DNA of 63,568 nt, counting the filler, from Craspedostauros australis (lineage: Eukaryota): assembly GCA_030167865.1 (NCBI GenBank). It is 9 parts of 9 records of this genome, joined end to end, with 100 filler letters (N's around TTAATTAATTAA, not from the genome) between each part and the next. Parts side by side here need not be neighbours in the genome. Positions count along the whole stretch, not along the records: positions 1 to 22,359 come from JALAGF010003306.1; 8 more parts are not named here. One strand, written 5' to 3'. The notes below the pieces were generated by a model. The model worked only from the letters and a program-made list of their open reading frames with translations, had not been told where the DNA came from and did no database searches. Both the position numbers and the translations under genes were made by a program. Below, piece after piece: positions 6 through 48,643 of this stretch (position 1 is the stretch's first letter; each line of letters opens with the position of its first letter).

Positions 6-3000
6 CTACGATAGATCGCTCAACGCAGAATGATCATCATCGTCGTCATCATCGTTGGTACCGCTGCCGGCCGCTCTGCTACCCTTGCTACCGGCGCTTA
101 CATGAGTTCCGCCCATGCCATTCGGTGAGGTGGGCGCTTGCTGCACTGACTTCGCGCCTGCAAATGTCCGGGCCATGGTATTTGTTGTTGGTGTGTACAC
201 AGACAACATGTCGAAGCTGGCTTTCGTCTTATCACGAATCTCGAAAGCAAATGCTTTGCCTCCGCCGACTCCATTCCACCCGCCTCTCTTCACCTGATCT
301 TCATCGATGTACTCGCCACGTCTATTGCGGAAGTCGGCGCACTTGGCGACACCACCCCAAGCCTGATAGAACCCCATCGCCTTCGTGAAGTATGGCCGCG
401 CCAGATCATTGCTATCGACGCTAGATGTCAAGACATGCTCGCCTGCCAATTCGCAGGCCAACCCGGCCTCGTGTAGCTGGCCCGCTCGCTCCGCACCATC
501 TATGGACGCTTCGTAGCAATTCCGGATATAGGTTGGCAACGAAGCACTTGACTTGATCGACTTCATCTCGGCCCGGAGCAGAAGGTAGCGGTTGATCGCA
601 GAATTGCCTTTCTCGTCACATATCTTCTTGAGCTCCTGTTTCTTCTGCCGGAGTATCTTCATGAACCTCTTCTGCTTCGTTTTCCGGTACCGATTGGACG
701 CCATCAATCCACAAAACATGATGATCATTGTTTGTATGGCGGCATCCGTTGACACAAGCTTGCCTGCCACCATCTTCTCGTAGAGCATCTCCGCAAATTC
801 GTACTTGCCGAAGTATATGGCGAGACACATCCGACTCCAGAACGCAGCGAATTGGAAGCGGAAGGCCGAATTTTCGTACTTCTTCCAATCCATGCATTCC
901 TGCCAATCGATGGGAAGCGCCCCCGCAATTTTTCTGGGTGCGCTGGTGTACTCGGTGATCGATTCGAAATGCCCATTCATTTTGTACATCTTCATTTGCT
1001 CGAAGACCGAGTCAATGGCAGGCAAGAGGCCGCCCAATGGGTAACCTTGGTTGAATGCGTGGAAGATGTATCCATAGTGAGCAAGGATCCCAATCTCAAA
1101 CTCACCCTTGGACATAGCAGAGCTGTAGGAGTACTGAAAGTCCGATGCAACTTCTGCTGGTGGCTTGGAGTATTGATCAATGAATGACGCGGCCAGGTAG
1201 TAGACGAAGCTCGTGTATCTATTGTTTTCGCCAACCTTCCGGATAATCTTCTTGGCCAATTCCACGTATCTGCGGGCATTCGTATACTCACCCAGCTTGT
1301 TATGGATCATCGCAAACGATACCATCGCATTCGCGCACTCCCCGCATATGCCCACCCGCCTTGTGATGTCGACGAGACGCGTTACGGTCAGAAGCCACGC
1401 CTTGGTATCATTGCACAAAAGCGTACGTGCAGTGAGCTGCCTCAGTAGGCTTATTGGCAACAGCGTCTGAGGGTCCGTGATGACAGTAGCATTCTCCAGA
1501 AACTCTTCATCTGACGTGCGACGAAAGTACGATCGCAATGACACCAGCTGGCGAAGGCCGCGCAAAAGGATGCCACGCTTTGGGTACAAGCTGCACATCT
1601 GCGCGCACTTCTTGCTCATTTGAAGGGACTTCTGGTGCTTGCCCTCTTTGGCCAGAGCTCTCGCCATGGCATCGTATGTGGGGAGCTTGTCGATGAGCGC
1701 CGTGGCATGCTTCAGCACCTCTTCACCAATTGAGTATCCCTGCTCATAGTTCCCCAGCAGAAGCTCAACGTCGCATCGTCCGCGTAACAGCCGGAGCGTC
1801 AGGTCGTAGTGACTTTGCCATGGATCGCACTTGAGCTTTCGCAGTGCGGTTGCGGCAATCTGCAGGTACGTCGCAGCCGGGACGAGGGCGGTCATCTGCA
1901 AAGCATGCTCTCCAGTGCGGAGGTTCCGTTGCATGGTTCGCAGGTGATCCTTGTCGGGTACGCAGTTCAGATGCTCTGCTGCAATGAACATCAGCCCCGT
2001 GTCGTTGGCGATCGAGGCGTGCACCCCGCCGTGTCCTGGGGTGCCTTGATTCGCCATGCTGGACTCCGCGCTCGTGCACAGCCCCCAAAGGCATTGGCCG
2101 ATGCGGAGCCGGAGCTTGGTCCGGGTCTCCCCAAACGGCACCAGGTCGTGGGCTGCCTGCTGGATGCGATCGTGTGCAAAGCGATACGTGGTTGCACCAA
2201 TCGAGTTGTGTAGCAGATCTTCCAGCACGGCCTGTTCCAGCAAGGCGAAAAGTGATCGGTGCTTTTGGTTCTTCGAGGCGTCGTCGGTGCTTTCACAAGC
2301 ATTCGCACCGGCGATGACATGTGCATTGGCATCGATACTCTCGAAGATGTCTTCGTGGACGTGGCCGTGACTGTGGCTATGATTTTGTTCATGATCCAAC
2401 ACAGCCTGCAGCAGGCTGACATCGAACGATGATCGGATGTAGGAGGCGATGGCCAGCACCCTCTGCATCTCGACGGACAGGGCCCTTAACTTGGAGGTGA
2501 CGAGATGCAGAACATCTCTCGAATCCCCAGGGAGAGTGTTTCGGCTCGCATCGCTATTCGCATTGAGATCGCTGTTAAGCTCCCACTGGAAGGAGATGCG
2601 ACTGTATGTCAGCTCGTTGTTTTGTTCCATGTCCTGCAGCAGCTGCACGGCGTGGAAGATGTTGCCTTTAGTCTGCTTGAAGAGGAAGTCGACGATGCTG
2701 TTGATCAGATCGATGGTGTATTCATCACGGGCGTCCTCTTCCTCTTCCTTGGCTTCGCTATGGTCATGACTATGACCACTTGCCAGCTCATGAGAAGTGG
2801 TTTCGTTGTCACTCTGGCGAAACAGCTGGGACACCCAGTCATGCAGCTCTTGTCGAGTGAAGTTGGCAAGCTGGACGCTGACGTATGGCAGCGCCAGGCT
2901 TATTGCCGTATCAACGCCGGGCGTGGCAACGGCTGGCAAGTCCTGCGGCTGTCCTTGCCGCATCTCGTCCAGCAGCTTCATGAATGGCAGGCTGGCGTCT

Positions 3001-4277
3001 GGATCCAACAGCTCATCGTGCGAATGAGGGTTGTACTCCTGCCGGATGGTGCCCATCCAAAGGAAGTGAGGTCGATGCAGCAGGGTGGACAGAAGGTTCA
3101 TGCTGTCCTGCGATGCCCACTGCAGATCATCCAATACCAGCACCAACGGACACGCCTTCGATGAAATGGCCGTCAGGAATTGGACGAACGCGTACTGAAA
3201 CGTGTTCCATGCTGTGTCGTTGTTGGGCATCTGCGAAGTCCGGGAGTTGGGATGTGGCTGTGCCTGTGACTGCGACTGTGTTCCTGATCCAAACTGTTGT
3301 GCATCCGCTCCGTCGTTGAAGAGGATGGACAGGGGCGGAATGAAGGTCTGCAAGAGCTCTGCTTGTTCCGATGTCATCTGGCTGGCTTTGACTCTGGTCC
3401 GCAACCGCTTGAGACTTGTATTCGCAGGTGTATTCATATGAGTATTGTCATTAGTGCCGTCCCCCCATGATATACTCTGTTTGCTATTGGCCATTCCATT
3501 CTGCTTGTCTGATCCTTTCCCAGCAGTGGATAGCAGCAACGAAGAACACCAATCGGAGAATGCTTGTGTGATGGCCGAGTAGGGATCGTTCTTCTGGTGC
3601 TGCTCGAACTTGCCCTTGATAATGTGAACGTTCACACCGTCGCTGCGGCGCTCGTTGCTGATGCGCTCGCAGAATGTGTCGACGAGGTGAGATTTGCCCG
3701 TCCCGCTGCCACCCCAGACGAAGGCGGCTGGAATGGATGGGTTTGACGTTGATGTTGGCATTGGCGTTGATGTTAATGTCGGCGTTGCTTCTGGCGTTGT
3801 GGACGCAGATGCACCGCGCTGCTTGCCTTGCGTCATCATCTGATCAAATGCATGCCGCAGCATCGCAAGCTCCTTCTTCCTGCAGTACGAATCAGAAGAA
3901 TTGGCGTTGCCACCGACGTTGCCGTTGTTGTTGGCTTTGAAGAGAGTGCGAGGCACGTCCATATTCAGTTCATGCTGGTTGTAGCCATCATCATAGAAGT
4001 TGTCACCCGATGTGAGAACCATCTCGTGCATGACAGAGGACGCCCTGCTCGACTTTCTCGCGGGTGCCGATGATGTTGAGAGGCTGTTGCTTGGGTTGGT
4101 CCTGGCGTTGGTACTGGCGGTGCTAGTGGCACTGGTTGCCGTTGTTGCTTCTGATGGAAGCATGGTCATCGGCATGGTGGAGGGAAGGCAGATACTGGTA
4201 GTGGTAGGACTGGATGCTGCTTGTGTTCGTGCTTGTGTTCGTTGTTGCGTGTGATTGTTTGTCACGATGGCCGCCAA
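6..4277 (-). CDS. STAND-class AAA ATPase (AAA_16-like) with C-terminal helical/TPR-like region, related to the ATPase core of bacterial Ser/Thr kinase-AAA-GAF-histidine kinase proteins
   Basis: 1423-aa ORF. Walker A GGSGTGKS, 'KGKFEQ...PYSAITQAF', Walker B LVLVLDDLQWA, 'TKGNIFH', 'YRFAHDRIQQAA' and C-terminal 'YQAWGGVAK'. Ser/Thr-rich N-terminus. First ATG is at about 4268. Confidence 0.8.
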   Translation of the reverse strand: MAAIVTNNHTQQRTQARTQAASSPTTTSICLPSTMPMTMLPSEATTATSATSTASTNARTNPSNSLSTSSAPARKSSRASSVMHEMVLTSGDNFYDDGYNQHELNMDVPRTLFKANNNGNVGGNANSSDSYCRKKELAMLRHAFDQMMTQGKQRGASASTTPEATPTLTSTPMPTSTSNPSIPAAFVWGGSGTGKSHLVDTFCERISNERRSDGVNVHIIKGKFEQHQKNDPYSAITQAFSDWCSSLLLSTAGKGSDKQNGMANSKQSISWGDGTNDNTHMNTPANTSLKRLRTRVKASQMTSEQAELLQTFIPPLSILFNDGADAQQFGSGTQSQSQAQPHPNSRTSQMPNNDTAWNTFQYAFVQFLTAISSKACPLVLVLDDLQWASQDSMNLLSTLLHRPHFLWMGTIRQEYNPHSHDELLDPDASLPFMKLLDEMRQGQPQDLPAVATPGVDTAISLALPYVSVQLANFTRQELHDWVSQLFRQSDNETTSHELASGHSHDHSEAKEEEEDARDEYTIDLINSIVDFLFKQTKGNIFHAVQLLQDMEQNNELTYSRISFQWELNSDLNANSDASRNTLPGDSRDVLHLVTSKLRALSVEMQRVLAIASYIRSSFDVSLLQAVLDHEQNHSHSHGHVHEDIFESIDANAHVIAGANACESTDDASKNQKHRSLFALLEQAVLEDLLHNSIGATTYRFAHDRIQQAAHDLVPFGETRTKLRLRIGQCLWGLCTSAESSMANQGTPGHGGVHASIANDTGLMFIAAEHLNCVPDKDHLRTMQRNLRTGEHALQMTALVPAATYLQIAATALRKLKCDPWQSHYDLTLRLLRGRCDVELLLGNYEQGYSIGEEVLKHATALIDKLPTYDAMARALAKEGKHQKSLQMSKKCAQMCSLYPKRGILLRGLRQLVSLRSYFRRTSDEEFLENATVITDPQTLLPISLLRQLTARTLLCNDTKAWLLTVTRLVDITRRVGICGECANAMVSFAMIHNKLGEYTNARRYVELAKKIIRKVGENNRYTSFVYYLAASFIDQYSKPPAEVASDFQYSYSSAMSKGEFEIGILAHYGYIFHAFNQGYPLGGLLPAIDSVFEQMKMYKMNGHFESITEYTSAPRKIAGALPIDWQECMDWKKYENSAFRFQFAAFWSRMCLAIYFGKYEFAEMLYEKMVAGKLVSTDAAIQTMIIMFCGLMASNRYRKTKQKRFMKILRQKKQELKKICDEKGNSAINRYLLLRAEMKSIKSSASLPTYIRNCYEASIDGAERAGQLHEAGLACELAGEHVLTSSVDSNDLARPYFTKAMGFYQAWGGVAKCADFRNRRGEYIDEDQVKRGGWNGVGGGKAFAFEIRDKTKASFDMLSVYTPTTNTMARTFAGAKSVQQAPTSPNGMGGTHVSAGSKGSRAAGSGTNDDDDDDDHSALSDLS

Positions 4278-5228
4278 CGTAGGTGCCTGGTTGTTCTGTC
4301 GTTGTCACTGTTGTCGGCGCTACGCTGTGGGCGTGTTTGCTTTCGTCTTGGGTTTGTCAGGTGGAAGTGCTGAGGAGGACTCTTGCTGTGGAGTGGCATG
4401 CAATCCTTCTCGGTGCTTCTTTTGGAATGACCGCTTGTGAGATTGGACCAGTCTTGCCGTCCGAATTTGTGAGTGTTGGAGTGGCAATTCCCTTGCGGTT
4501 TGGATGGAGGTAGATGGGAGGTTTATGCTCAAGGAGATCAGGTCCTCCGCTGTGATGTTGGTTGCGGAGGCCGAACCTGCACCAGGATGCCCAAGGCAGC
4601 CCCAAGAAAGAATGAGGCTTTTTCACTCTTCGGTACGATCCAATCACGTTCACCCTCCAGTGCGTCTTCCGCCCCACTGTTTGCGCAGCAGCGCAGAGGA
4701 GAGGAGAGGAAAGCCCGTCTTGATGTTGAACTTGTACTGGCTGGGAAATCGCGATTGGCATGATCAGGCCCACTTTTCCGGGCGGAGTGACCAACGTCCT
4801 TGCTTGGGTTGTCATGGACGATCGTGAATGCATGGAGTGGAGTTGTTGGCGCGAACAAAAGCCTCCGACGATAAGAAGCGCTGCGTTCTTTCATTCGCTG
4901 CGTTTTATCACAAACGGCGAAGAATGCCGTTGCGAAAATCAATTGTGTCAAGCGGAAGAATCACTCCCAAACTCCCGAGACGCAATCAAGAACCAGGAAG
5001 TGTTGTTGGCAGATGATGGATCAAGCTTCCACGAACACAAAAGCACACTCTTGCGCTCATGCCCCACTGCACACAAGTTCTGAGTGATGTGGAAGCGGCA
5101 CGACCCCAACAATCGAGGACAAGGAAAACGGAGTCACATCGACCAGGTGCAAGCATAATTAACTGCGCTTCAAATCTCCTCCATTCTCTCCATGCGTGAC
5201 AGGCTCAACTTCGTCTTTGGTGGCGTTG

Positions 5229-5320: not shown

Positions 5321-6626
5321 CTCGTTCGATCTGTACCAACTGGGGCGGCATCACAAAAAGAGACATCGAATACGCAATGGTCGTGAGTCAGGGAGGCGAC
5401 AAGGACATTGTGGTTGTTTTATCCTTCGTGGGAAATGAACGCCGCGAAAGTCCAATTTGCATGGGATGTACCTGTGGGATGTTGGTGCCGATCGGAGAGA
5501 AACCGCTCCCCCACAACTGCCCACACGATGCCAAATTGGAATTGGCGCCGATTTCCTCGTCTTCCATGGCTTCGATGAGGGTCTGTGCGAGAGCTGAAAG
5601 CTGAAACACTTCGAGGATGTATGGTAATATACGAATATGGTATTATATCATACGACCTTGACATACACAAGCTCGTTGAGAGTCATAACATACGAGCCAA
5701 GAGTACCCGCGCACCATCTCTCTTGTATTGTCCGACCAGCACCCCGCGTCGAAGCGTCGAAATGAAGGAGGCACAATTCCTTGGAGGACATGTGGCGGCG
5801 TGGACAACTGCAACCACAAGTGCAGAGTCGAGTCTGGTGTTATGGTTCGTACTCGACTTCTGTTGATGTTGGTGGCGAAGGTGATGGTCGCGCGTGCAGC
5901 CAACGAAGCAACAAGCAGTGGAGTGTGGCTCGTACTCTTACGTTCCCTTAGTGGTACGCACATGTCAGAACGAAACCAACCAAGATGGTCGTCGTTTTGT
6001 CCTGTCTGTCTGCATGGAGTACTTCGGCATGAGCTGTCTGTCTGCATTCACCACAACCGACGTCTTGTTGACAGTTTGTGCGAATTGATCAAGAACCTCG
6101 TTCTTGACGTTTCCGTGACTGACAACGTGATTCAATCAGTCACGTATGCCACAACAACAACAACGAATTCAAAAAGTTAACCGCCAAAACAACCAAATGC
6201 AGAAAGCAACGCTGCCCAGCCAGCCACGATGTGGAAGACCACGGTGCCGCTTTGCGCCCCTCTGCCATGCAAACACGGAGAGCCCCCAACCCATGCTCGT
6301 TGGACCCATCCATCACACGAGCGGAGGTGAGCCTGGCTCGTGGAATCCTCACCGAGTGCATGGAATGGAAGCGACGAGACATTCTATCGATTCCCTGCAA
6401 TCCGATTGTTCAGAATACGAGGACTGCTCGTGTCGTCGAGCCTGATGAACAAGCGAATCGATTGCTACACATGTGACAGACAGAGACGCATGGATACGAT
6501 ACTCAGAGAGACGTATATATAATAGTACGCATCACGATCTCGCACTACTATTGGTAGTAGGCTGAATCCAACCAACATCGCCATCGCCAACACCACTGTG
6601 CTTCTGCGAGCAGCATCGCAACAAAC

Positions 6627-8645
6627 ATGAAGATGCATTCGAGGAGCACGCTGGTGTGCTCCCTCGCGTTTGCGATCATTGGGTTTGTCGGCGACCTTCC
6701 CAACCTCGCCAATGCGCAGACAGATGCTGGAGTACGAGCAACAGTAGACACAGAAATAGAAGCGCCAGAAGCAGAAGCACGGAAGCAAACGGATCCAGCT
6801 GCTTGCGCCAATGGCGATGAATCACACTTAGAGGGATCCTGCCAGGTGCCGGCTGCACGACCAACCAACGGTGAAGGCAAGCATGAATCCGATTCTGCCA
6901 CCACGGACAACGCCAGCGAAGCTGCTTCCCCAAAGCCATCTGCACAATCAAGACCTCGCAGAGTGCCGGAAGGTTGCCAGATCGTATTGGCGCCCACTAC
7001 GCAAATACCGCCGCTCTCGTCGTCGAGCTCGGGCCAACAACAGAAACGGCAGGTTCGCACAAGTAGTAGCGAGGGGGGCCATCACCATGACTGGGGCGTC
7101 TTCACGCTCGTCCCTCGCAATCGAGGCGATCGCGCCTTGCATGGAGACGTCGTCCATCAGATCATTGATGCCGACCCGACATCGGTGTGGCATCAGTTCT
7201 ACCAAGGAGAAGGCAACCTCGTTACATCCCCCAAACTCACCGGTGGGCAATTCGAGGCGCAGTTATCCGTCCTCTCGGCGATACCGGGGATTGGAGCATT
7301 GACCCAACCGTCGGCGTCCAAAAATGTTCTCCCGTTCGTGCCGATGGTGGATGAAGCAGGGTTGACGCGGCAAAAGTACGCCGGCGCTGGTGCCGTCACG
7401 CATTACCACAACCTCACTTGGTTTGTCAGCAATCAGCGGGTGGAAGCTGGCGGAGAGCTATTCCGACCAAGCACGTCTCTGCAACGTCACCGCCAACGGC
7501 AGGAGGCAAATCATGATCTACCCGGAAATGCTCAGAAGCAGCAAGAGCAGCAGGGGCAACACACCAGCAGATCGCCGTCATGGTTGCGGGAAAATGGCTA
7601 CTGCTTGGACAACGCACAACCAAAACGAAAATCCAGACTTGAAGGGGCAGGCCGAGGCGTGTTTTCCAACAGAGCGATGAAGAAAGGCGACGTAGTTGCG
7701 CCCGTTCCAGTCGTTCCCATTCTTACGGAAGACTTGCGCACGGGAGGGAAACGAGGCAATCGACAACAGCTCGTGACCAATTACTGCTTCGGCCATCCCA
7801 ACTCGACAGTGCATCTGTACCCGTTCGGTCCGACTATTCATCTCGTGAATCATTACAACCGGCCGAATGCAAGGCTTCGATGGGCAGATCAATCAGTTGA
7901 AGCGTCGTCGCAAGAGACACAAACGTCGCTGACCACGCTACCTTCGCTGGATCAAATACGCACGAGATCAGCACCGAAGAGCATGCTGCTTGAATTGGTG
8001 GCGTTGCGAAATATACGGAAAGGTGAGGAAATCACGATCAACTATGGCAGGGGATGGGAGGACGCATGGTGGCGCCATGTACGGCGGTGGGAGTCCACGC
8101 ATGACCCAGAAAGCTCTGATGGAGCTTTCGCTCATGACCACTACGTGCCGGCCAGCGTCATTGATGATGCGGCCAAGACGATCCGCACTGAGGCAGAACA
8201 GAAGGAGAACCCGTACGAATCCAACGTGGTCATCACGTGCTTCTACCGTTACGGCGATCGCACCGAGTCCGAGCGACAGAAAGCCAAGGAGGCGTCGCTC
8301 AAGTCACCATCTCAGTCCGCCATCATCACGTACCGATGGAAGATGACTCGCGGGATCTACGATCTCAAAAACTTGCGACCGTGCAGCATCCTCAAACGGA
8401 AGCAGGGCGACACAGGACGATCAGCGTACGCGGTGCGAATGTTCAATCGACCGAACCACGACGAGAGTCACGACGATGATCGGATTCCGGAAGATCAATT
8501 GCATATCGTAACGCATATTCCAAGATCTGCGATCCGTTTCATGGACAAGCAGTACACGACGGATCAGCATCTGAAGCAAGCGTTTCGGCATCCAATCGGT
8601 TTGGAGGATAATCTGTTTCCGGCGGAATGGATGGATTTGACGTAA
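6627..8645 (+). CDS. Secreted/ER-targeted tandem SET-domain protein methyltransferase (diatom BacSET-like), paralog 1
   Basis: Signal-peptide-like N-terminus (STLVCSLAFAIIGFVG...ANA-QTD). SET motifs 'GAGRGVFS..AMKKGDVV', 'NYCFGH', 'HLVNH', 'LVALRNIRKGEEITINYG'. An upstream SET-like unit ('WGVFTL...GGELF') is also present. Colinear with 15020..16861. Confidence 0.8.
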   Translation: MKMHSRSTLVCSLAFAIIGFVGDLPNLANAQTDAGVRATVDTEIEAPEAEARKQTDPAACANGDESHLEGSCQVPAARPTNGEGKHESDSATTDNASEAASPKPSAQSRPRRVPEGCQIVLAPTTQIPPLSSSSSGQQQKRQVRTSSSEGGHHHDWGVFTLVPRNRGDRALHGDVVHQIIDADPTSVWHQFYQGEGNLVTSPKLTGGQFEAQLSVLSAIPGIGALTQPSASKNVLPFVPMVDEAGLTRQKYAGAGAVTHYHNLTWFVSNQRVEAGGELFRPSTSLQRHRQRQEANHDLPGNAQKQQEQQGQHTSRSPSWLRENGYCLDNAQPKRKSRLEGAGRGVFSNRAMKKGDVVAPVPVVPILTEDLRTGGKRGNRQQLVTNYCFGHPNSTVHLYPFGPTIHLVNHYNRPNARLRWADQSVEASSQETQTSLTTLPSLDQIRTRSAPKSMLLELVALRNIRKGEEITINYGRGWEDAWWRHVRRWESTHDPESSDGAFAHDHYVPASVIDDAAKTIRTEAEQKENPYESNVVITCFYRYGDRTESERQKAKEASLKSPSQSAIITYRWKMTRGIYDLKNLRPCSILKRKQGDTGRSAYAVRMFNRPNHDESHDDDRIPEDQLHIVTHIPRSAIRFMDKQYTTDQHLKQAFRHPIGLEDNLFPAEWMDLT

Positions 8646-9047: not shown

Positions 9048-12000
9048 TCAGGCGGAAGGATCAAAAACACAAAAGTCGGTCCGAGAACCCAAGGGGCCAA
9101 TGCACCCAGGCACGGCATCATTCGCGTCTCTCTGAAAGCAAATGAGACCATCCGCGCAGTCACTATCTGCATCACAGTCGCCATGGCATCGCTGCAGTTG
9201 AAAGTGTTTGGGGTCTGGTGTTCCACCATGATCAACGATTCTGAGCGTTCCAAAAGTTGGCGTGCCGCTTGGAACCGCAGTGGGTTTGCTTGTCGGCGAA
9301 AATGATGGAAAACTAGATGGAGGAGAGGACGGTTGATTTGTTGGCATGCCAGTCGGTGCGCTGGACGGTTGCTGCGTCGGCAAGTGCGATGGAATGTCAG
9401 TGGGTACGTACGATGGTTCTGCAGATGGATTAGATGACTGCCGCCGCGTCGGTACGTTGGATGGTTCGACTGATGGTTCGACTGATGGTTCGATGGATGG
9501 TTCGATGGATGGCTCGATGGATGGTTCGATGGATGGTTCGATGGATGGTTCGATGGATGGTTCGATGGATGGTTCGATGGATGGTTCGACGGATGGTTCG
9601 ACGGATGGTTCGATGGATGGTTCGATGGATGGTTCGACGGATGGTTCGACGGATGGTTCGACGGATGGTCCCTTGGTTGAACTGCTAGACAGTGCTTCTG
9701 ACGGTTCACTTGATCTCAGTAAGGATGGGGCAGATGAAGCTTGATTCGTTGGGGTATGAGTAACCACGATTGAGGGGGACAACGATGGAACATTGGACGG
9801 AAAAGACGATCTTATCCTTGTTGGCGCACTTGTCGGCATCCTTGTCGGTAACGTTGTTGGCAATGCCGTGGAGATTTTTGAAGGCACGCTGGAGGGAAGA
9901 GGCGAGATACCTTCGGTCGGAACAGCAGTGTACTCTGTCCTGTTGGAGTCTGTTGGCAACTCGGATGCCAAATCGCTGGGTGACGGACTTCCCATGGGGC
10001 TGGGACGAGGCGTGGGTGAAGCAGATGTGGCATTCGCCATCATCCTCGGTGACCATGTTGGAACGAAAGTGTTCGGCGCGGCACTAGCGGGCGACAAGCT
10101 GGGCAACATGAACGGCTCGAACGTTGGTGGTGTGCTTGAAGACGCCGTCACGTTGATGGTTGGGCCTTCATCAACGATCGGTATCTGTTTGTCGATTGAT
10201 TCCAATGTGGGGCGCTGACTTGGAAAAGTGGAAAAGGCCTTGGTCGGATTGGAGCTGCCAAACGCGCTGGGCTGTCCGCTCGGGAGTTGGGATGGAGAGA
10301 GAGTTGGGGAGGTAGAGGGCTGCACGGTTGGCTCTTCACTTACAGCAACGGTTGGCGGGCTGGTTGGATGCCCTGTTGGAAGAGTAGATGGGATTGCGGT
10401 CGGTGATTGAGTTGGAGCCGCTGTTGGATTGGAAGTCGGCGCTGCCGTTGGTTGTGACGTTGGTCGGTCACTTGGAGATGCAGTTGGGCTGCGTGATGGA
10501 ATAGCAGTGGGAACGAAAGTTGGCGGGGAGGTCGGCGATGCTGTAGGTTGAGATGTTGGGCGCTCACTCGGAGTTTCAGTTGGGTTTAATGTAGGTTCGG
10601 TAGTTGGGAACGCAGTTGGTCTGGATGTCGGCGATTCAGTTGGAGCGCTGGTTGGGAGCTTGGTCGTGCAAGGACCGAGATCGCGCCTTCGCGTTGGATC
10701 CCTGATGCAAATATCTGTTCTGGGCGCGGCAGTTCCAAAGCAGCCAGGAACATCTTCTCCCTTGCTGCGTTGGAAGCAGATAAGGCCTGATGAGCAATCA
10801 CGATCGTAATCGCAATCTCCCGTGCAAAGCTGGATTGGTGTCTGAGGGCTGCTTCCCAGATCTTGCAGTGGGAGCTGTTCGATAGGAGACTCACCTCCTG
10901 CCTCTCCTTCGCTACATTCATGGTCGCAGAATCGTATTCTTCCATGGAATCCGACAAAGCCAGGAATCATGTTTGGTTCTGACCTGTCTGCGAAGTTCGT
11001 CGTTGTATATCCAAAGCCGTCCGACACAAGAATCGGGCACTGCGGACACGAGCCATCACGATAAGCCGGAGTTGTGCTTTGGCCGTCGAGCGCCTTGAAT
11101 TTGTAACCCGCTCCCGCTGTGGACCCAGCTGTATGAGGAGGAGTAGGAGCGGATAGGTCGATGCGAAATGAAACGAACGAACCTGCTAAGAGCTTCACGG
11201 TCTCTTGGAAGTCCGGTAAATAGGTGAACCGACCTCTGCCTGCTCCCTGCACTTTGGCGGTATCGAGCTCTGACCAGGAAGGGTTGTCAACGCCAAAGTC
11301 ATCGTCCGATACGAAATACTTGACCGTTTGGTACTCCGTGGATTCGAGAACGATGTCAATACCATGCACCCACGTCGTTTGTTGGGCGTCGACACGGAAG
11401 TGGAAGGATACCACATCATCGTAGTCGCGGATGTATTCATTCGTATCCACGTCCATCCAAACAGCGCATGCCAGCGGCAGCGATCCTGGGGGATGAAAGT
11501 CCACCCATGCACACTGAGTGTCCAATGCAGGCGAGTCCATGTCGCGAACTGAAACAACCATGCCGTCTCGCTCCGTGCTCGTGGTGTACGACTGCCCGCT
11601 GGAACTGAGTTTGGCTAACAGAGATGACGGTTGACGAGGATTTGCGGCTTTCTTCACTTGGGTCACTAAGACTGCGTTGTGACCCTCGTTGGTTTGGGAG
11701 TTGAAACCGATGTCTCTGTTGTATCCAACATAGTAGTTGTATTCGTCAGATTGAACGTCAATCCACATGAGCACGATCTGATCCGTTGCACTGCCATCGA
11801 TCTCGTAGTCAACAATTCCGCAGATTCGCTGCAATGTGGTCCCGCCATCCTGTATCCTGGCTGCTTGGTTTCCATACCAACCAAGCTGATAGCTCTTGGC
11901 TCCTGTGGAGGGCACCCGTTTATTGTCGGTCAAAGGCAACGACGAGTTTGGGTGAGAGAGCGAATGGGTCGCTTGATCATCCAAATTAGGCGACTGGAAT

Positions 12001-14172
12001 ATTCGTAGTTCCAGAACTATGTAGCACGCAGGCTCGATAGAGAATCTACTCATAAACCGTTTGCCCATGTGGCATTGCGCAACGTGTCGCAGTTTTGTGG
12101 CGCGCTCATTGACAGTTGGGAGTGAATGGCACTGGGGCCGCAGATATTCCAAACAGCACCACAGCAACAGGCATAAAAAACCCTTACCGTTGAAAGCCTT
12201 CATCTCTTGCCTCACTCTTCCGATGTGGTTTGATGGACCCATGATTCCACTGAGAATGGATGCAATTAAATGGTCGAGGAGAGGTGCGCATGACCCGCAG
12301 GAGTCCGTCCATGTGCGGAATAGAAATGGAAGGGCAACGAGGAACACGATGACGACGGTGCAGTGATATTGATTGAGAATAGATTCTCGTACCGCAGCGT
12401 GAGAGTGTTGAATGGGGTACGCGATTTGGCAAACTGCAATGTCGATGGCGGCTATCACACCATCGCGTTGTGCACATACTCGCGCTCGTATATATGTATT
12501 GCGCAGCATAAGTAGCGTATGCCAACCTGACATTTTGCGAAACGAACTGAAGCCGAACGCACCTTGTATCGCCATACTCGTTCGACCCTTCGTGGCTGTG
12601 CAGCAATCCAAAGTTGTGTCCAATCTCATGCATGATAGTGATGATGTGATTCATGGCATGATCTGTTGGCTTTGATGCCCGAACATTGTAAGCAGAGATC
12701 TTTGCCCGTGGTCCTATGTAGCCATAGGCTGAGGGCGGGATGAAGAGGAAATGTCAGTATGTGCACAAGTATTTGCATGTAGTCGCATATATTTGTATGT
12801 ATTTGTATATGTGTGCACGTGCGCAAAGAGCGGTAGTGTGAGAATGCGATGTCGTACCGGAGGGTAACAATGCTCCATGTGAAATTGTTGCACAGACGTA
12901 CGAGTTGTACGGAACGTTGTGAGGGAGCATGGCGAATGCACCTTCGATAGTGCTGCATGAGAATCGGTACACATTCCCATTCGCGCAGATGATCATGCCT
13001 CTCGTGGTCAAACGATACAATGCTAGCACATTGACGCAAGCACGCATAACAACAACTGCTGCCTCCGGTATGGACCAAGAGGAATGCCCAACTCCAATCC
13101 GCTGTCAATGTCGCAACTCACCATACCACCGTCGACTTCCTCGGAATTCTGAACCGGCTGGAAAGATGAGGAAAATATGATCGTACTGCTGTTCCAGCCC
13201 AACAGCCCGCAAATCTTCCGCGATGATATCATCCAATGCCAGGACATCTTGTCCGGCTAGATTGGTATTGGATATCCAATCATAGATTCCATCGGTTACC
13301 AGGCCAGGGACGTCCTTGGAATACAGTGTGGTTTGACCATGCGAGACATGATGGAACTGCTCCATGAAAGTCAAGTCTGCTCGATCGAAGATGCCAGCAC
13401 GGACGTCTGCTTTCGGAACTTGGCCATCTGGAAAGACTGTCCGGACCACGAGAAAGGAGCGGTTGCCCGATGACAGTGGATTGAGTGATGAATGGCTTCC
13501 GTTTGCTTGTGACTCCTGTTGTTGTTGTTGTTGCTGTTGCTGGCGCTGGTGGTGATTCTGCCGTCCTGCTTGGTACTGCTGTTCAGACATCATTTCGTTC
13601 ATGTGTGGTTCGGCAAGCCGAATCTCCATGTCATCGACTGTCATGCCGCCTGGTAGTATGAGTTCTCTGCCATCTTCCGATATGATTGAACCTTCGAGGA
13701 ATAAGCTGTAGTCCTGTGCAGATATTGGCAACGATAGCGAGGGTGACGCCCAGGATGCCATCGTGGATGATTCCAACACGGAAGATAGTGTGGCCAGCTC
13801 AGGCGAACGCCGATCAATCCAGTCCATGTCCAGCCCTGGAATAGCGAGGGATAGATGGCCATGCTGATGCACATCGTTGCCGCGTAGCCTGCATACGACA
13901 TCCAATTCATCTGACGGTTGATCGGAATGGTCTTCCTGCACAAACGACACCCCAAGCGCAGATAGACGACACGGTTCACGGATGTACCGCTTGTGTCCAG
14001 CCCGCAGTGACGAAGACAAGCACGGCTGCAGCACCGATATGCAGACGAGGCATGCCAACGACGCGCATGTGCTGAATCGCCGCCTTGCCCGACTTATCAT
14101 CCGTATCCGTATCCGTATCCTTGGTTTGGTCATATTATTGATTGGCATTCTCGTCGTCGTTGCTGGGCGCAT
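9048..14172 (-). CDS. Secreted M11 (gametolysin-like) zinc metalloprotease fused to two frustulin-type ACR domains and Pro/Ser/Thr-rich stalks; multi-exon
   Basis: Inferred exons 14172-13122, 12713-12563, 12249-12188 and 11902-9048, with a possible extra mini-exon near 12941-12902. Splicing yields [22 protein letters not shown] (metzincin HExxHxxGxxH plus Met-turn) and [15 protein letters not shown] motifs [18 protein letters not shown] and [18 protein letters not shown]. Hydrophobic N-terminal segment. Confidence 0.8.
9459..9670 (-). repeat. 12-bp coding tandem repeat (PSIE/PSVE)n, about 17 copies
   Basis: GGATGGTTCGA(T/C) units on the + strand, translating to PSVEPSIE... in the protease stalk. 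Confidence 0.95.
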
Positions 14173-15019
14173 TGTTGTCCTTCAGCAGAGCGTTGTCGAT
14201 ATCGCCATTGCCATCAACGATTTCCCCAGCCTCTTGTCAGTTCTTGTGTCTGCGAGTGAATGGGTCGGTAGGTCGGTGGGTCAGTGGGTCAGTGGCTGGG
14301 AGGCTTTTTCTGTCGTTGGCGTCGTTGGCGTCGTTGATGTTGTTGTTGTTGTTGTGGTTGTTGACGTTGATGTGCTCTTCTTATTTGCCTTCCCCTTCCT
14401 TGTGTTCTCCTCTATTCTCCTCTTCTCCTGGTTGCTCCCCTGCTCCGTGCACCTTTGATCGCGACTGTCTTGCGATGAACAATCGACCAATCAACCCTCC
14501 CACCTCAAAGTGGATGTCAATGCCGCTCGCCTCTTTTGCGTCTTTGCCTCTCTTGTGATGCCGCCGATGACAAACACAAAGAATACTTCCGCTTCTTCAC
14601 CTCTCCCTCTCCGTGTGCGCGTGTGCAAAACAAACCACACGCAGGCAACAACGACAAACAGAATGCCCCTTGCCACCAAATCTTACCAACCGTGCAAAAC
14701 AACAAGTCCCGAGTCCATTTTGTGAGCAAAAAAGGTGGCCAATTTTGGCTCCGTTGGAAAACACGGTCCATAAATGATCCGTGCGACTACAGTGAACGGA
14801 TGTTCGTGTTCGCAAGACAGGAACGATGGCGCCATTCCCAACACCACATGAAAGGAACGGCATGTCCCAATCGCCTCCACCTCCCGCCTCCTCTCGCGCA
14901 GATACTCGTGCGCCTGCCCGCAATGTTGCGATAGTGGCGTGCCAACAAAATAGTGGCTTCTGCGATGATCGCCACCGCCAACGCTGGGGTCGTCTCCTCT
15001 TGTGGTGTTTTGTTGTGAC

Positions 15020-16861
15020 ATGATGGCCTTGCTGATCAGGGGAACAAACGTTCGCCAAAGATACCTCATCAACCGCAGCGGCCAGAATCCATCGAACGTC
15101 CAGTTGGTGACATCCACCGTGCAGCTGTTGCTCGTCGTGGTGGTTGTGGCACTGTTGGTGTTGTCACAGTCGTCGACGATTGTGAGCGCCGATCAGCAAC
15201 AACAGAAGCAGCAGCATTTGCAGTTGGAGGAAGCATCGTGCTCTGCCAATGGCATCGATGAGAGCCATGATTGCGCGGCTTCGTCTTCGTCTTCGGCATC
15301 GGTTCATCCAAATCCCAGTTCCAAGGTACCGGAGACATGCGGTCTTGTGATGGCGCAGTCGTCAATCCCTGGTGCTGGGTGGGGAGTTTTCTCGTTGGTG
15401 GAGCGGGACGCTGGGTCGTCGTTGCTGGAGGGCGGGGAGGTGGTTCTGCACATCACGGATCCCAACCCTCAGACAGCTAGTGGAATGAAGCGTCTGGTGT
15501 GGGACTATGCCTGGAATGGTCAGGAGATGGGCGGTCAGTACGAAGGGCAACGCGTTCTGTCTATCAGCGCGACAGGCGTACTTGCCAATGGCCACTTGAG
15601 TATGTTTAACATCAAGCAGAAGAATCCAAAGATGGACGGTGCTGGTGTTGCACGCGCCGATTCCCCGGGCGCAGGTTCATTCACCCATTACCACGGCTTG
15701 GAATGGTTTGTCCGGAAGGATCTTCATAGTGGAGATGAAATCTTCCTGGACTACGGCAACGATTGGTTTCGTGAGCGGGGATACGGCAGCACGCCAGCTC
15801 TGCGAAAACGCTCGATACCATGGCTTCGTGAGAATGGATATTGCCTCGACAATTTGATGCCTGGCAATTCCACCATCCCGCACGCAGGACGGGGAGCATT
15901 CGCATCGCGCGATATGGTGCAAGGCAGCATCCTCGCACCGATCCCCGTCCTTCCCGTCGCCAGATCAAGCTTGGTCTTCCTCAAGCAACGGCAAAGCGGC
16001 GAGATCGACACATCGCAGCAACTCGTGCTGAACTACTGCTTTGGGCACAATGATTCGTCCATCCTCTTGTTCCCGTACGCTCCGCGGGCGTATCTGGTCA
16101 ACCACAGCTTGCGCAAAGCGAATGCTGCAGTGCAATGGTCGGCGGCCAGCAGCCAGTTGTCTCTTGGCTTGTCGCCCACCGAGCTGCTGGAGTCGAAATC
16201 GCAGCTTCTGCTGGAACTGGTAGCTACGCGCCCCATTTCCAAAGGTGAAGAAATCATGGTGGATTATGGCGAGGCATGGGAAGAGGCCTGGCTGAATCAC
16301 ATCATCTCGTGGTCATCCAAAAACCGTGCGAGTAGCAAGAGCGATGATGGCGATGCCTACGAATATGTGAGTGCAAGTTCCCTGAACCAACGACAAGCCG
16401 AACTGCGCACCGACAAGGAACAGCGAGGAGCAAACTCATACCCAAACAACATCTTCACATCATGCTACTACGACTATAATAACGCGATGGTTCCAACGCA
16501 GAGCAGTGACGCCGGACGAGGCAATCAAGTTCGTTGGGATTCGTCGTCGTCATCTTCAAACACCTTCGAATCGAGGCATCTTCGACCGTGCATCGTGATG
16601 GATCGCCTGCAAAGTGCGACTCCTGGCACTGATGAAAATCTGTATACCGTGCTCCTGATGAACCGTCCAGGCCTTCGACAGCATCAGCGCATCCCGAAAC
16701 ACAAATCGCCGTTCATTGTGACGCACGTGCCGCGAAGAGCAATCCAGTTCTCGGATAAGATGTACACGACAGATCAACATCTGAACGACGCATTTCGGCA
16801 TGAAATTGGATTGCCCGACGCTCCGTATCCTGCGATTTGGAAAGACCTCGAACCTCATTAG
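15020..16861 (+). CDS. Secreted/ER-targeted tandem SET-domain protein methyltransferase (diatom BacSET-like), paralog 2
   Basis: Hydrophobic leader LLLVVVVVALLVLSQSSTIVSA-DQ. SET1 'SSIPGAGWGVF...LANGH...GDEIFLDYG'. SET2 'STIPHAGRGAFA...NYCFGH...YLVNH...KGEEIMVDYG'. Shares the C-terminal 'LRPC...YTTDQHL..AFRH.IGL' with paralog 1. Confidence 0.82.
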   Translation: MMALLIRGTNVRQRYLINRSGQNPSNVQLVTSTVQLLLVVVVVALLVLSQSSTIVSADQQQQKQQHLQLEEASCSANGIDESHDCAASSSSSASVHPNPSSKVPETCGLVMAQSSIPGAGWGVFSLVERDAGSSLLEGGEVVLHITDPNPQTASGMKRLVWDYAWNGQEMGGQYEGQRVLSISATGVLANGHLSMFNIKQKNPKMDGAGVARADSPGAGSFTHYHGLEWFVRKDLHSGDEIFLDYGNDWFRERGYGSTPALRKRSIPWLRENGYCLDNLMPGNSTIPHAGRGAFASRDMVQGSILAPIPVLPVARSSLVFLKQRQSGEIDTSQQLVLNYCFGHNDSSILLFPYAPRAYLVNHSLRKANAAVQWSAASSQLSLGLSPTELLESKSQLLLELVATRPISKGEEIMVDYGEAWEEAWLNHIISWSSKNRASSKSDDGDAYEYVSASSLNQRQAELRTDKEQRGANSYPNNIFTSCYYDYNNAMVPTQSSDAGRGNQVRWDSSSSSSNTFESRHLRPCIVMDRLQSATPGTDENLYTVLLMNRPGLRQHQRIPKHKSPFIVTHVPRRAIQFSDKMYTTDQHLNDAFRHEIGLPDAPYPAIWKDLEPH

Positions 16862-22359: not shown

Positions 22360-22459
22360 NNNNNNNNNNNNNNNNNNNNNNNNNNNNNNNNNNNNNNNNN
22401 NNNTTAATTAATTAANNNNNNNNNNNNNNNNNNNNNNNNNNNNNNNNNNNNNNNNNNNN
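22360..22459. other. Artificial contig linker (N-run, TTAATTAATTAA, N-run; 100 nt)
   Basis: Spacer with stops in all six frames. The same linker occurs at 27699-27798, 44144-44243, 49078-49177, 55576-55675, 58557-58656, 59985-60084 and 62378-62477. Confidence 0.98.
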
Positions 22460-22460
22460 C

Positions 22461-25400
22461 ATGCTGCTGGTGGTGCCAGATGTGTCCGCCTCCGACCTGG
22501 AGAGCTTCTCCACCATCTTCGAGATGGTGTACAACGAGCTGGCGGCTCAGTACTGCGACATGCTCTTCCGACGCGTCCTCGTGGGAAGCGCGATCACCAC
22601 CATCAACATCCCCGCCGGACAAACGCCGAATTCGGACGGATGCGTTCTCGGTGACACCACCATGGAGACCAACGGAAGATGCCGTGGATGCGGTGATGGC
22701 ACGCCGTTGGTGGACGAAGATCCTTCTGCGACGTCCCCCGCCACCGGAGGTGCCGGAAGACGATCCCTGCAGCAGCTCCAGACCGAGCTGGATCTGGATC
22801 GCGAGTTCAACGTGGACCTTGCTGGCCGTCCCCGCCATCGTCGCATGCAAACCGAAGACACGTGCTTCTGTGCCGTGGACGCGATTCCTGACAGAGGCCC
22901 CTTCCTGCTGGAGCTCTACGCTGCTCTCAACAGCAAGCTCACGGAGATGGGCGTGGAGAGCATCTGCGGACTGACGGATGAGATCATCGACATCCTGCCA
23001 CCGACGGACGTGCCAACTTCCAGGCCGACCAGCAACCCCACCGTGCTGGCATCGTCGGCTCCGACGGCGGTCCCGACCGCCCAACCAACCAGCGTTCCAA
23101 CTTCCGCTCCAACATCGGCACCCACGGATGTACCAACTACCCAGCCAACGAGTAATCCGACCAACATTCCAACTGCCCTTCCAACACCAGCGCCGACGGT
23201 CTCGCCAAGCGCCCTGCCGACAAATGTGCCAACCACCCAGCCAACGAGCGTGCCCACCCCAGAGACGCCCAATCCAATAGAACAACCCACGAGCGCACCT
23301 ACAGATTTGCCAACCACCCAGCCAACGAGCAATCCGACCAGTACCCCAACGAGCGCACCTACGGATGCACCGACGTCCCAGCCAACGAGCGCACCTACGG
23401 ATGCACCGACATCCCAGCCAACGAGTGCACCGACTAGTCGACCAACTTCTCGACCAACAAGCGCACCGACGAGCAATCCAACGAGCAGTCCAACAAGAAG
23501 GCCGACCCGTATGCCGGTGACCAGCAATCCAACGTCTCGGCCAACAGACAATCCAACCAGTATGCCAACCAGCAAGCCGACCGACATGCCAACCCGTATG
23601 CCGGTGACTAGTAATCCAACGTCTCGGCCAACAGACAACCCAACCAGTATGCCGACCAACATGCCGTCTGACAATCCAACCGACATGCCGACTGCCGTGC
23701 CAACCGATGCCAACGAACATGACGAATGTGAAGGTGCACAGCCCCTGATTCGTTACGACATAGAATCAACTTTCGCGTTCATTACTGTCGAAGGTTTCGA
23801 TATCATGAGCGAAGGCCCACAGCCCAGCGCTGACTTCGTCACGACTGTGGATGCGACCCCAGAAGATGGCCTGACATTTTCAGACCCGATGGGAAATTGC
23901 AACATCGCATCTACAAACGGTGTCTGGTTGACATTCTCCATACCGGAAGCCAGCGTCTACAGCCTGACATTCGCTGAGAATGACTCGATCACGGCTGGGG
24001 TGAAAGTTACGATATTTTCAGGAAGTTGCGAAGGATTGGCTTGCATTGGCTCCTTCGATCTCAATCCTCCACCGATGGAGGTGGGCATGCGCTCATTGCA
24101 AGTCATTCTTGAGCCTGACCCTGAGGGACCGGGGCCGTCTCAAGTCGAGTTACCTCTCCTTGACGCCAGTCTGACGTATTACATGTTGCTTCAGAATGCT
24201 GATGACTTGGTCCCAGTGACAGAAGGCCTACCGTTCATCTCCAATGGTTGTGCATCCTTCGAGCGCAGCAACAGCAACTTCTGCGTTTGCGCTGCGGAAC
24301 TCCTCCTTAACGGTGCATCTGTAGAAGGCTTCCCTCCGCAGACAGGCGAACTTGAACCGGCTGTCTGTGCTTCCGACACTTCCATCCCTGGCTTCTTCTA
24401 TAACCTCGCCTTGACTCCTGCAGACATTGGTGCTGGGACCGACAAGTGGCTATTCTTCTTTACCACGGATGAAGAAGGGAGTGTCGAGCTGACGGTGAGC
24501 AGAGGTATCAGCAGTGACTGCACCACGTTCACATGCCAGCCTGCCATTGTCTCTGCCTGCGACGCAGCCTTCACAGTGCGATCCGTGGACTTCACGGTAG
24601 CGGGCGACTACAAGCTCATCATTCAGTCCGTGACGGATCTGCCGCCGTTCACCGCAACCGAGCTGTACCAACCATCAGAGATCGCAAGCTTCTGTTCTTC
24701 AAGGAATGTCGTCACATGCTACTGCGCCGACGAATTGTCGTCAGCGCTTGTGGGCGGAGCACTCACCTATGGGAACGGCGTCAGTTTCGCGCTGGCATCG
24801 GACGGCTCCAGCAACCCTGACGCATGCTTCGACTACGCGTCGTGCGGCGTCGGCTTGAGCAGTCCGGCCAAGTGGTTCCAATTCACAACGCCATCTGTGT
24901 TGGCGATCACGGATTTCCGGTTGGGGCTAACTGACAACACAGGTAGCGTGGAGTTGTCCGCCGTCATCTTCAAGACTTCGTCCACTGTGACAGCCAACAC
25001 CGTCGACAAGTGCGACACCCTCATGTGCGATATGAGCGGCCTAGCGGATGGGAGCACCGTCCAACTGGAGACGGACACGTCCTACTTCATCGTCGTGCAA
25101 GCCTCGGGAGCATCAACGGATTTAGAGGCCACATTAACCAACATCGTTCCTCCGGCTAACGACATGTGCGGGTCAGCGTTCACGCTGGTTGAAGGACCCG
25201 GGATTGATGGTGTGTTCTCCGGCATCACGAATATGGGGTACAGCATCAACAATCCACCCGCATCGCTGGACAGCGTGGAAGTTGCCACAACAGTATTGGC
25301 AACTGGTGAGACCATCACAGTCACCATTCCACCAATCTGTTCGATCTCAACGGAAGAGGGAGTTTGGTTTGCGGGACCGGCGCTGTCAGAGTCACAGGGG

Positions 25401-26462: not shown

Positions 26463-26643
26463 CACTAAATATTGCCTACATATACCTGTACTTATGAGAT
26501 ATATAGTATGCTGTTGCACTGTTCTACCCCACTCTACCCTGCTCTGCTCTATTACTCTGTGTTTCTCTGCTTACGTGCTCGGTTGTTTGGAGGTTGCAGA
26601 CCTTGCCTCTTCCCCGAAGCTCGAGAGCATGGCCAAACAACCT

Positions 26644-27698
26644 CTATTGCTTCGAGGCACGGCATAGCAACGGAGCCCCGTTGGTGACAAACCAAAACAT
26701 GGCGTTGATGTCGTCTCGGACCGAGCCAAGGATATCCGCAAGGTCCTTCGTCGCAGTGTTGCCAGCGACATCCCCCGAAATGACTGCGCGATGGCGTATT
26801 CCGTTGGAGCGAATCCGCCTGGGTCGCAACGCGGCCTCTGCGTGGTGGCAGATTGGACACTGCGCATGTGCGAGTATTCGCGATGCATCATTGCGGTGTG
26901 GATCGTCGGAAGGATGGGGACATGGCATGGGCGTTTGATGATGTTGCTGTTGCTGTTGCGATGAGGGCGTGGTGTGGTCTCCGTCATGGGGATTGCACTG
27001 CAAGTCCTCCGGGATGGGCTCCATCTCGCTTGATTCTCCTGTTTGTGCTGCATCTTCGCTTTGGCATCGTGATGAGCCGTTTGCCGCGGCGAGATGATGA
27101 CAAGACGGAGCAGGGCAGTTGTTGTCAGCGCCGCCGGAAACAGCCGCATCTACCCTCCCGCACATGCGCATGCCTCCATCTTGCAACAGCAGGATCTTGC
27201 GACCTGCCTTGTTGAGCAGCAAGTAGAAATCGACGTGCTCGCGGTAGACGGCGTACGAAAAGGGCAGCAGCATGACCGGGTCCTGATCCGGATTTGCGTT
27301 GAGGTCACGCATGGCGCTCGCGTAGTCATCCTCCATGGTTCGTTGCAACCACGAGGCTTCGAACGACAGCGATGGTGGTGATGGCGGTGATGACGGTGAT
27401 ACCAGGTTGCCGTAGGATGAAGCAGACGAAGTGGATAGAGCGGGGGTACCGACGCCAGGCACCCCGGCATCAGATCTGGATCTGGATTGGAGGAGAGCGT
27501 TGTGATGGATGTACCTGTGGCTACCAGTGGCATTCGGAAGGGTTGCGTTGCGGGGCAGGTAGGAAGTATACGTGGACGAATCGCCCCATTCGAGCTTGAT
27601 GGTTTGCAGGTGGTAGTTGTGGACGATTCCCTCGACCAATTGGTACAGTGTGTTCGGCGAGACGACCGTCCGCTCCTCGGGATTGTCGAGTATCAAAG
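26644..27698 (-). CDS. Hypothetical protein, 5'-partial; C-terminus resembles the cap of diatom LRR-type proteins
   Basis: Open to the contig edge. 'HNYHLQTI', 'FYLLLNKAGRKILL' and 'AMFWFVTNGAPLL' resemble the recurrent C-terminal pattern of that family (recognised from memory, unverified). Confidence 0.5.
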
Positions 27699-27798
27699 NN
27701 NNNNNNNNNNNNNNNNNNNNNNNNNNNNNNNNNNNNNNNNNNTTAATTAATTAANNNNNNNNNNNNNNNNNNNNNNNNNNNNNNNNNNNNNNNNNNNN

Positions 27799-37135: not shown

Positions 37136-37366
37136 CTACTCGTCAGACTCCTTGGATTCTTCGGCAGCAGGCTCAGCGGCATCCTCGGCCTCGCCCTCAT
37201 CAGAGAAAGACAGGATGACCTTTCTTGTCATCTCGAGATCTTCCTCGGCGGACTTGGCTGGCTTGGCGGACAGCTGCGAGACGAAGGCCTTGCTGGAGAC
37301 GTGGGCTGGGGCGAAGGCGGAGGCCACGGCTGGGATGGCGAGGAGGATGGCGGCAGAGAGCTTCAT
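37136..37366 (-). CDS. Small plastid-targeted protein of unknown function (76 aa)
   Basis: Signal peptide followed by an exact ASAFAP motif and a transit peptide. GC3-rich codon usage. Acidic mature part. Confidence 0.82.
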   Translation of the reverse strand: MKLSAAILLAIPAVASAFAPAHVSSKAFVSQLSAKPAKSAEEDLEMTRKVILSFSDEGEAEDAAEPAAEESKESDE

Positions 37367-48639: not shown

Positions 48640-48643
48640 CTGC

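Follow-up and report, generated by a model that had tools for sequence, protein, structure and literature searches.

A four-exon gene of Craspedostauros australis predicted to join a gametolysin-family (M11) protease domain to two ACR units of the frustulin type

The stretch of DNA analysed here (the window) comprises 63568 bases of Craspedostauros australis and was scanned in full, and the gene under study lies at 14172..9048 on its minus strand. Three minus-strand open reading frames (ORFs) cover this gene, at 13105..14181 (358 residues), 12184..12753 (189 residues) and 9048..12650 (1200 residues), at the places where an earlier reading, made from the DNA alone and here called the sequence-only reading, had located a gene spread over three ORFs. 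When four exons are joined by their coordinates, the resulting coding sequence of 4134 nucleotides is translated into a protein of 1377 residues with zero internal stops, and both the zinc site and the Met-turn are intact in it, as had been claimed for the spliced product. The predicted polypeptide unites a complete gametolysin-family (M11) domain, an orphan domain of 220 residues, a first ACR unit, a stalk rich in Pro, Ser and Thr, and a second ACR unit. This order is the one that the sequence-only reading had proposed, and its ACR coordinates agree with ours within a few bases, but its three coding pieces have to be replaced by four exons separated by three introns.

The gene model is consistent with several features of the sequence. 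All the three introns (393, 313 and 285 nucleotides) are of the GT-AG type, and a motif is restored at each junction, namely W-x-A-Y-x-Y-I at the first, YGD-x-SG-x-MG at the second and [12 protein letters not shown] at the third. Across the three junctions, the spliced protein is collinear with two proteins which both carry the M11 Pfam label, that is, P0001 (27% identity over 427 columns, E 4e-28, with the alignment starting from residue 163) and P0173 (35% identity over 237 columns, E 1e-27). An M11 profile was built from 120 diatom M11 domains, the best 120 of 235 matches at E<=0.01 (alignment A3), of which 118 are labelled PF05548; the exon-1 fragment, which was misaligned in alignment A2, was left out of A3. 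This profile matches residues 234-548 of the spliced protein (the domain beginning at 13473 and ending at 11538) as one domain that spans the three junctions, covering nodes 4-318 of 329 with 169.6 bits (E 4.7e-54). As a control, the three single ORFs reach 15.0, 36.1 and 75.9 bits on the same profile, and the form with intron 3 retained reaches 151.0 bits, split into 73.7 and 75.0, while the spliced form is matched as one domain.

Whether the protease and the ACR units could belong to separate genes, a question raised along with the earlier reading, is answered at the level of the sequence by exon 4, whose open reading extends over 951 codons. Because the C-terminal half of the M11 domain and both ACR units share this single open exon, separate genes are excluded, and the protease and the ACR units are in one gene, unless the exon hides an intron or a gene end. 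The coordinates of the exons, introns and domains are listed in Table 1.

Table 1. Exons, introns and protein features of the gene, with positions counted along the window.
Feature	Position	Strand	Description
Exon 1	13122..14172	-	ORF; ATG at 14172; phase-1 donor GTGAGT
Exon 1 product		-	basic N-terminal stretch, hydrophobic signal-like segment, pro-region with poly-Q run, first 117 M11 residues
Intron 1	12729..13121	-	393 nucleotides, GT..AG; junction restores W-x-A-Y-x-Y-I, also present in P0173
Exon 2	12563..12728	-	166 nucleotides; holds the zinc site [11 protein letters not shown]
Intron 2	12250..12562	-	313 nucleotides, GT..AG; junction yields YGDTSGIMG, compared with YGDQSGLMG in P0173
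Exon 3	12188..12249	-	62 nucleotides; holds the Met-turn, M409 codon at 12242..12240
Intron 3	11903..12187	-	285 nucleotides, GT..AG; in frame and stop-free
Exon 4	9048..11902	-	2855 nucleotides including the stop at 9050..9048; continuous ORF
Exon 4 product		-	M11 C-terminal half (to residue 548, 11538), middle domain, ACR1, stalk, ACR2
Middle domain	10857..11516	-	residues 556-775 (220 residues); predicted to be rich in beta-strands
ACR unit 1	10695..10838	-	residues 782-829; six Cys, C786..C825; CTGDCD, VPGCFG
Pro/Ser/Thr stalk	9222..10694	-	residues 830-1320 (491 residues); P 21%, S 20%, T 13% (54% together)
ACR unit 2	9057..9197	-	residues 1329-1375; C1332..C1371; CHGDCD, VPGCIG

The introns themselves are easily overlooked. 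Intron 3 is hidden within the third ORF because its length is a multiple of three and it is open in the coding frame; its retention would add 95 residues inside the catalytic domain and leave the frame unbroken. Long open frames are also present inside introns 1 and 2, since stop trinucleotides are generally scarce in the surrounding DNA, including the intergenic part. On the minus strand, 6 stop trinucleotides occur in intron 1 (13121..12729) where 13.0 are expected, a number as low being reached in 2 of 300 dinucleotide shuffles, and the corresponding values are 3 against 7.8 for intron 2 (12562..12250; 3 of 300 shuffles) and 13 against 22.3 for the upstream intergenic region 14173..14968 (1 of 300 dinucleotide shuffles). 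An exon missed within introns 1 or 2, which had been suspected from these open frames, was rejected, as the alignment to the M11 profile leaves no gap to fill.

The assignment of the protease head to Peptidase_M11 holds for a part of the gene as well as for the whole. The exon-2 ORF alone passes the Pfam threshold for this family (24.8 bits, compared with a cut-off of 21; E 1.3e-5) and scores above the related metzincin families, in addition to the profile match of the spliced protein described above. The zinc-binding motif HEXXHXXGXXH was located by motif scan at 12630..12598 (residues 384-394), and the zinc ligands H384, H388 and H394 are kept together with the catalytic E385. The Met-turn, SGIMG with M409, is assembled across the junction of exons 2 and 3 and aligns with sgmMG of the profile. 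Upstream of the catalytic domain, a hydrophobic segment at residues 31-48 (14082..14029), with a hydropathy peak of 2.15 at residues 34-48, follows a basic stretch. The M11 domain is then preceded by some 180 residues that include a poly-Q run, and a part of them can be aligned to the P0001 pro-region. A search of the PDB with the M11 alignment gave only weak matches of the zinc motif to adamalysin-type enzymes (best E 0.0081). To our knowledge, no eukaryotic M11 structure has been solved, and an excerpt of the literature describes the M11 family as being without structural characterisation (PMC7518263).

The two ACR units were studied with the matches found by HMMER with residues 428-844 as the query, of which the best 150 of 2197 representative proteins at E<=0.001 were analysed. 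These 150 proteins all match via the ACR1 stretch, and each has at least one six-Cys unit, with 594 units in total. A profile of the 594 units is matched over its full length by ACR1 (61.2 bits, E 5.6e-21) and by ACR2 (63.7 bits, E 9.1e-22), 15 of 15 invariant columns of the 30-row alignment A4 are present in both, and the 12 cysteines are all kept, with the first and the last Cys of the two units at 10826..10707 and 9188..9069, respectively. The protein ends six residues past the last Cys of ACR2 and has no membrane anchor. In a six-frame scan of the 63568 bases, the motifs CxGDCD, VPGCxG and SYQLGW were confined to the protease gene. According to an excerpt of the literature, frustulin ACR domains carry the hexapeptides CQGDCD and VPGCSG (PMC4712521), and both types are borne by both units of the window protein. 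The top match is a protein of Cylindrotheca fusiformis (P0002) with 8 units in 642 residues, and another of the top matches is from Nitzschia sp. No protein named frustulin was among the 30 ACR matches looked up in their clusters, which bear organism labels only; the link to named frustulins is drawn from the published motifs and from the organism of the best match.

The structure of the unit was also approached by modelling. The AF2 model of ACR2 (30-row alignment) has a pLDDT of 82.7, and its nearest PDB structures are almost all inhibitor-cystine-knot peptides, but the similarities are weak, the best E-value of Foldseek being 0.56 (TM 0.70 relative to the target length) and the best Z of VIA-align being 4.0 (root-mean-square deviation 2.7 over 39 residues). 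A knottin-like fold may thus be considered as a lead for the ACR unit, and no more.

The middle domain is open for 220 codons with a coding-like composition, and it matches zero Pfam families at E<=0.01, gives a best PDB sequence match of E 0.75, and has zero BLAST matches among the 120 M11 proteins or the 150 ACR proteins. Its single-sequence AF2 model is poor (pLDDT 36.6), and its matches in the Atlas are unnamed clusters, with weak leads to DUF4082, lectin-like and PHR domains whose recognition is below the stated mark. The stalk region is matched by the Pfam PT repeat (E 8.2e-24) and holds 17 tandem PS[VI]E tetrapeptides, which derive from a 12-nucleotide repeat at 9458..9669 (period 12, 17.7 copies, 95% matches by Tandem Repeats Finder); the length of this repeat is likely variable between strains. 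Gly makes up 3% of the stalk and 6% of the whole protein, and no Gly run is found in the translation.

As for the design of the protein, a tail rich in Pro, Ser and Thr is present in 51 of the best 120 of 235 M11 proteins, and at least four Cys occur within the last 70 residues in 87 of them. Consequently, a protease head, a linker and a small Cys module make up the usual design of the family. Among the precomputed labels of the same 120 proteins, PT repeats are found in many and the chitin-binding CBM_14 in three. Conversely, the M11 profile matches four of the 150 ACR proteins with 70-78 bits (P0005, P0067, P0080 and P0097), in which Pfam flagged no M11. The sequence of each begins within the M11 domain (at node 174-182) and continues with a Pro/Thr linker and 4-8 ACR units; most simply, they are probably gene calls cut at an upstream intron, much as the ORFs of the window cut the gene studied here, and their zinc sites would then lie outside the called proteins. 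A tree of the M11 C-terminal half, in which all 125 rows were kept, places the four in one clade with a support of 0.995. The window protein falls outside this clade, and 25 members are needed for a clade that takes in all the five M11-ACR proteins. The window protein is on a long branch (length 1.43), and the M11-ACR fusion may have arisen either once or twice. Two metagenome scans, with the exon-4 part of the window protein and with P0080, confirmed zero relatives. The M11-ACR architecture is therefore rare, but not unique, among the sequences compared. It should be noted that in P0080 and P0097 the M11 half is separated from the ACR units by a further conserved Cys-containing domain, about 130 residues long, and that a Cys-rich stretch follows the last ACR unit in P0005 and P0080. 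The longest contigs of the cluster members of P0080 and P0097 are equal in size (17295 and 26050 bases), and the two may be neighbours.

The ACR unit is found on many other secreted proteins. A further Pfam domain is present in 21 of the best 150 ACR proteins, apart from the four that carry M11 by our own profile. The enzymes among them include Astacin, Trypsin_2, Peptidase_S8, the glycosidases GH16/GH75 (P0027), carbonic anhydrase (P0028), two PhoX (P0062 and P0117), purple acid phosphatase (P0137) and Lipase_3 (P0138), and ricin, LRR, VWA, PKD, F5/8C and other domains represent the non-enzymes. The ACR units had been claimed to be frustulin domains, and the profile scores and hexapeptides do match; the unit is nevertheless a very common module on many unrelated secreted enzymes and not specific to frustulins. 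Its distribution suggests a general surface-tether module.

With the M11 family (PF05548), and with the gametolysin (G-lysin) that Chlamydomonas makes, the window protein has in common the metzincin domain with HEXXHXXGXXH and the Met-turn; its N-terminus may be secretory and followed by a pro-region, as in that family. The M11 family is known, from excerpts of two papers, for cutting cell-wall glycoproteins (PMC11499653, PMC8769554), whereas the window protein is known from its sequence alone. In addition, the wall of the host consists of silica with an organic coat instead of hydroxyproline-glycoprotein, and the protease is extended by further parts, namely the orphan domain, both ACR units and the stalk of 491 residues. 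The diatom proteins named "Peptidase M11 gametolysin domain-containing protein", from Cylindrotheca closterium, Pseudo-nitzschia multistriata, Fragilaria crotonensis, Nitzschia inconspicua and others, match the catalytic domain over its full length (120 of 120 by BLAST) and have the same plan of protease, Pro/Ser/Thr linker and Cys-rich end, but in none of the 120 is there a match to the middle domain or to the first 235 residues of the window protein.

With the frustulins (alpha1-frustulin of Cylindrotheca fusiformis, epsilon-frustulin of Navicula pelliculosa, and those of Fistulifera solaris), the window protein shares the six-Cys ACR of about 50 residues with both hexapeptides, proline-rich linkers and, presumably, a secretory N-terminus. 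However, ACR makes up just 95 of its 1377 residues, in two units that are 491 residues apart; the polyglycine domain and the Trp-rich C-terminal domain are both absent, and in contrast to frustulins, which are coat proteins without an enzymatic part, the window protein bears a protease together with an orphan domain. The four proteins from environmental assemblies described above resemble it in the M11 C-terminal half, the Pro/Thr linker and the ACR units, and differ in having 4-8 ACR units in tandem and, in the M11 half, KNWLLGWY where the window protein has KSYQLGWY. Another comparable case is P0066, in which a zinc metalloprotease head is followed by ACR as well, although this head is an astacin (M12A), that is, of another protease family, with four ACR units and without the long stalk.

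The DNA around the gene shows some further features. Intron-free paralogous ORFs with a SET domain flank the protease gene on the opposite strand, at 6561..8645 (+) and 14969..16861 (+), with Pfam E-values of 3.3e-10 and 6.2e-10, and both of them start with a hydrophobic signal-like segment, which would be odd for SET-domain methyltransferases. At 6..4304 (-), an open frame of 1432 residues with AAA_16 (E 5.3e-19) and TPR_12 resembles a STAND-type NTPase. The region 22360..62477 contains sixteen N runs, each exactly 44 letters long, which form eight pairs with 12 bases between the members of each pair and presumably represent masked sequence.

Based on the above features, we consider it fairly probable that a single four-exon nuclear gene of this diatom-like alga encodes a modular extracellular zinc metalloprotease of 1377 residues, which is held at the wall or the cell surface by its ACR units and cuts locally. 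The hydrophobic N-terminal segment would route the protein into the secretory pathway, where a zymogen would be made and later lose its pro-region of about 180 residues; the removal of the pro-region is stated for M11 enzymes in an excerpt of the literature (PMC7518263). The stalk would probably be O-glycosylated, and through its two small, acidic, disulfide-knotted ACR units the protein would be fixed to the cell surface, within the organic coat of the frustule, which depends on calcium and is where frustulins are located. A fusion of frustulin with GFP has been displayed on the cell surface, as an excerpt of the literature states (PMC4712521). From this position in the coat, the protease head would cut (glyco)proteins of the wall or the surface locally, and the substrate might be either the cell's own wall, during division, sexual stages or turnover of the casing, or a protein from outside. 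Tethering to the wall and a role in wall remodelling, which the sequence-only reading had suggested for division, gamete release or auxospore formation, are inferences. A more specific proposal would take ACR as a general tag for the frustule coat, attached by diatoms to many exoenzymes, and the gene product as a wall-resident autolysin on a glycosylated stalk. Once activated, it would open the calcium-bridged casing when cells separate or during sexual stages, and its fusion may have arisen separately from the environmental M11-ACR lineage; this version is speculative and we regard it as rather unlikely.

Several points weigh against a surface-held M11 protease of this kind. The ACR unit was sought in M11 proteins of 568-2000 residues by pattern and profile, and it occurs in 0 of the best 120 of 235, where the best profile score is 9.7 bits; the search for the same architecture in other proteins, which the sequence-only reading had proposed, thus failed in the diatom M11 set but succeeded in the four unannotated public proteins with an M11 C-terminal half and ACR units. 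Word-indexed searches for orthologues returned only distant M11 matches (1 and 4 proteins). The catalytic domain is divergent, with a best BLAST identity of about 30-33% among the best 120 of 235 M11 proteins, and the conserved Cys of the M11 CFN motif is missing from it, a single Cys being present in the whole domain. The evidence for the exon junctions consists of consensus splice sites and homology. The N-terminus looks like a signal sequence followed by a pro-peptide, and it is a hydropathy profile that points to secretion. With just two ACR units, 491 residues apart, the tethering may be weak or absent, and the several ACR units and the polyglycine and Trp-rich domains of frustulins are missing here. 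Finally, the spread of ACR over exoenzymes is in favour of a general tether and gives no backing to wall lysis.

This last point leads to the most serious alternative, in which the protein is a secreted protease, either surface-held or free, that acts on outside substrates such as dissolved or particulate protein used as a nitrogen source, mucilage, strands of adhesive or attacking organisms, with the ACR units and the stalk as a generic spacer or tether. The presence of ACR on PhoX, purple acid phosphatase, carbonic anhydrase, lipase and glycosidases fits this explanation, and because ACR units ride on nutrient-scavenging enzymes, a general cell-surface tether is as likely as a role in wall lysis. 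Moreover, an excerpt of the literature gives 17, 50 and 33 M11 genes for three Pseudo-nitzschia species (PMC11499653), numbers which fit diverse roles better than a single task in wall lysis. On the other hand, the sole M11 function cited in the excerpts is the degradation of the cell wall in Chlamydomonas (PMC11499653, PMC8769554), and a gene of Pseudo-nitzschia multistriata annotated as autolysin rises within 1 h of mating, according to another excerpt. On balance, we hold a protease for outside substrates to be a possible explanation but a doubtful one.

Instead of being anchors, the ACR units might also regulate or protect the protease as knottin-like modules, for example by inhibiting it within the same molecule or keeping it latent, or they might simply be stable disulfide caps at both ends of the stalk. 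Protease inhibitors, namely EETI-II and a carboxypeptidase inhibitor, are among the best PDB neighbours of the ACR2 model, and ACR is found on four classes of proteases (7 proteins among the best 150 of 2197). However, these structural similarities are weak, since Foldseek gave no match with E<=0.001 and VIA-align none with Z>=5, and they may reflect just a common small disulfide fold; besides, ACR is also borne by non-protease enzymes and composes the frustulins, which are structural wall proteins. A regulatory, protective or capping role of the ACR units is consequently improbable in our view. Least of all do we expect that the gene is a silent or decaying copy, or that an unseen intron or polyadenylation site in exon 4 parts the protease from the ACR units. 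The searches found no orthologue of the same architecture and the branch in the M11 tree is long, as would suit such a copy, but 1377 stop-free codons, the complete set of catalytic residues, the 12 ACR cysteines, the canonical splice sites and a middle domain open over 220 codons make it very improbable.

Each division, and sexual stages too, require a diatom to open its wall and build it anew, and we know of no wall-acting diatom protease that has been characterised. In an excerpt of the literature on diatom walls, proteases appear as candidates only (PMC5501833), and other excerpts state that M11 genes are present in diatoms (PMC8613185) and expanded in some of them (PMC11499653). In the literature searched, frustulin was not mentioned jointly with gametolysin or peptidase M11, and in the excerpts returned, frustulin and autolysin appeared together only in a general review, and frustulin and metalloprotease only in work on an algicidal bacterium. 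If the window protein is just another secreted protease, it would be one more member of the large, expanded M11 family. The occurrence of ACR on proteases, phosphatases, carbonic anhydrase, lipase and glycosidases points to a natural tag for surface display, which could be applied to many proteins, also in the engineering of surface display in diatoms. As a gametolysin-family enzyme that bears a module of the frustulin coat, the predicted protein is a concrete and easily testable candidate for a wall protease.

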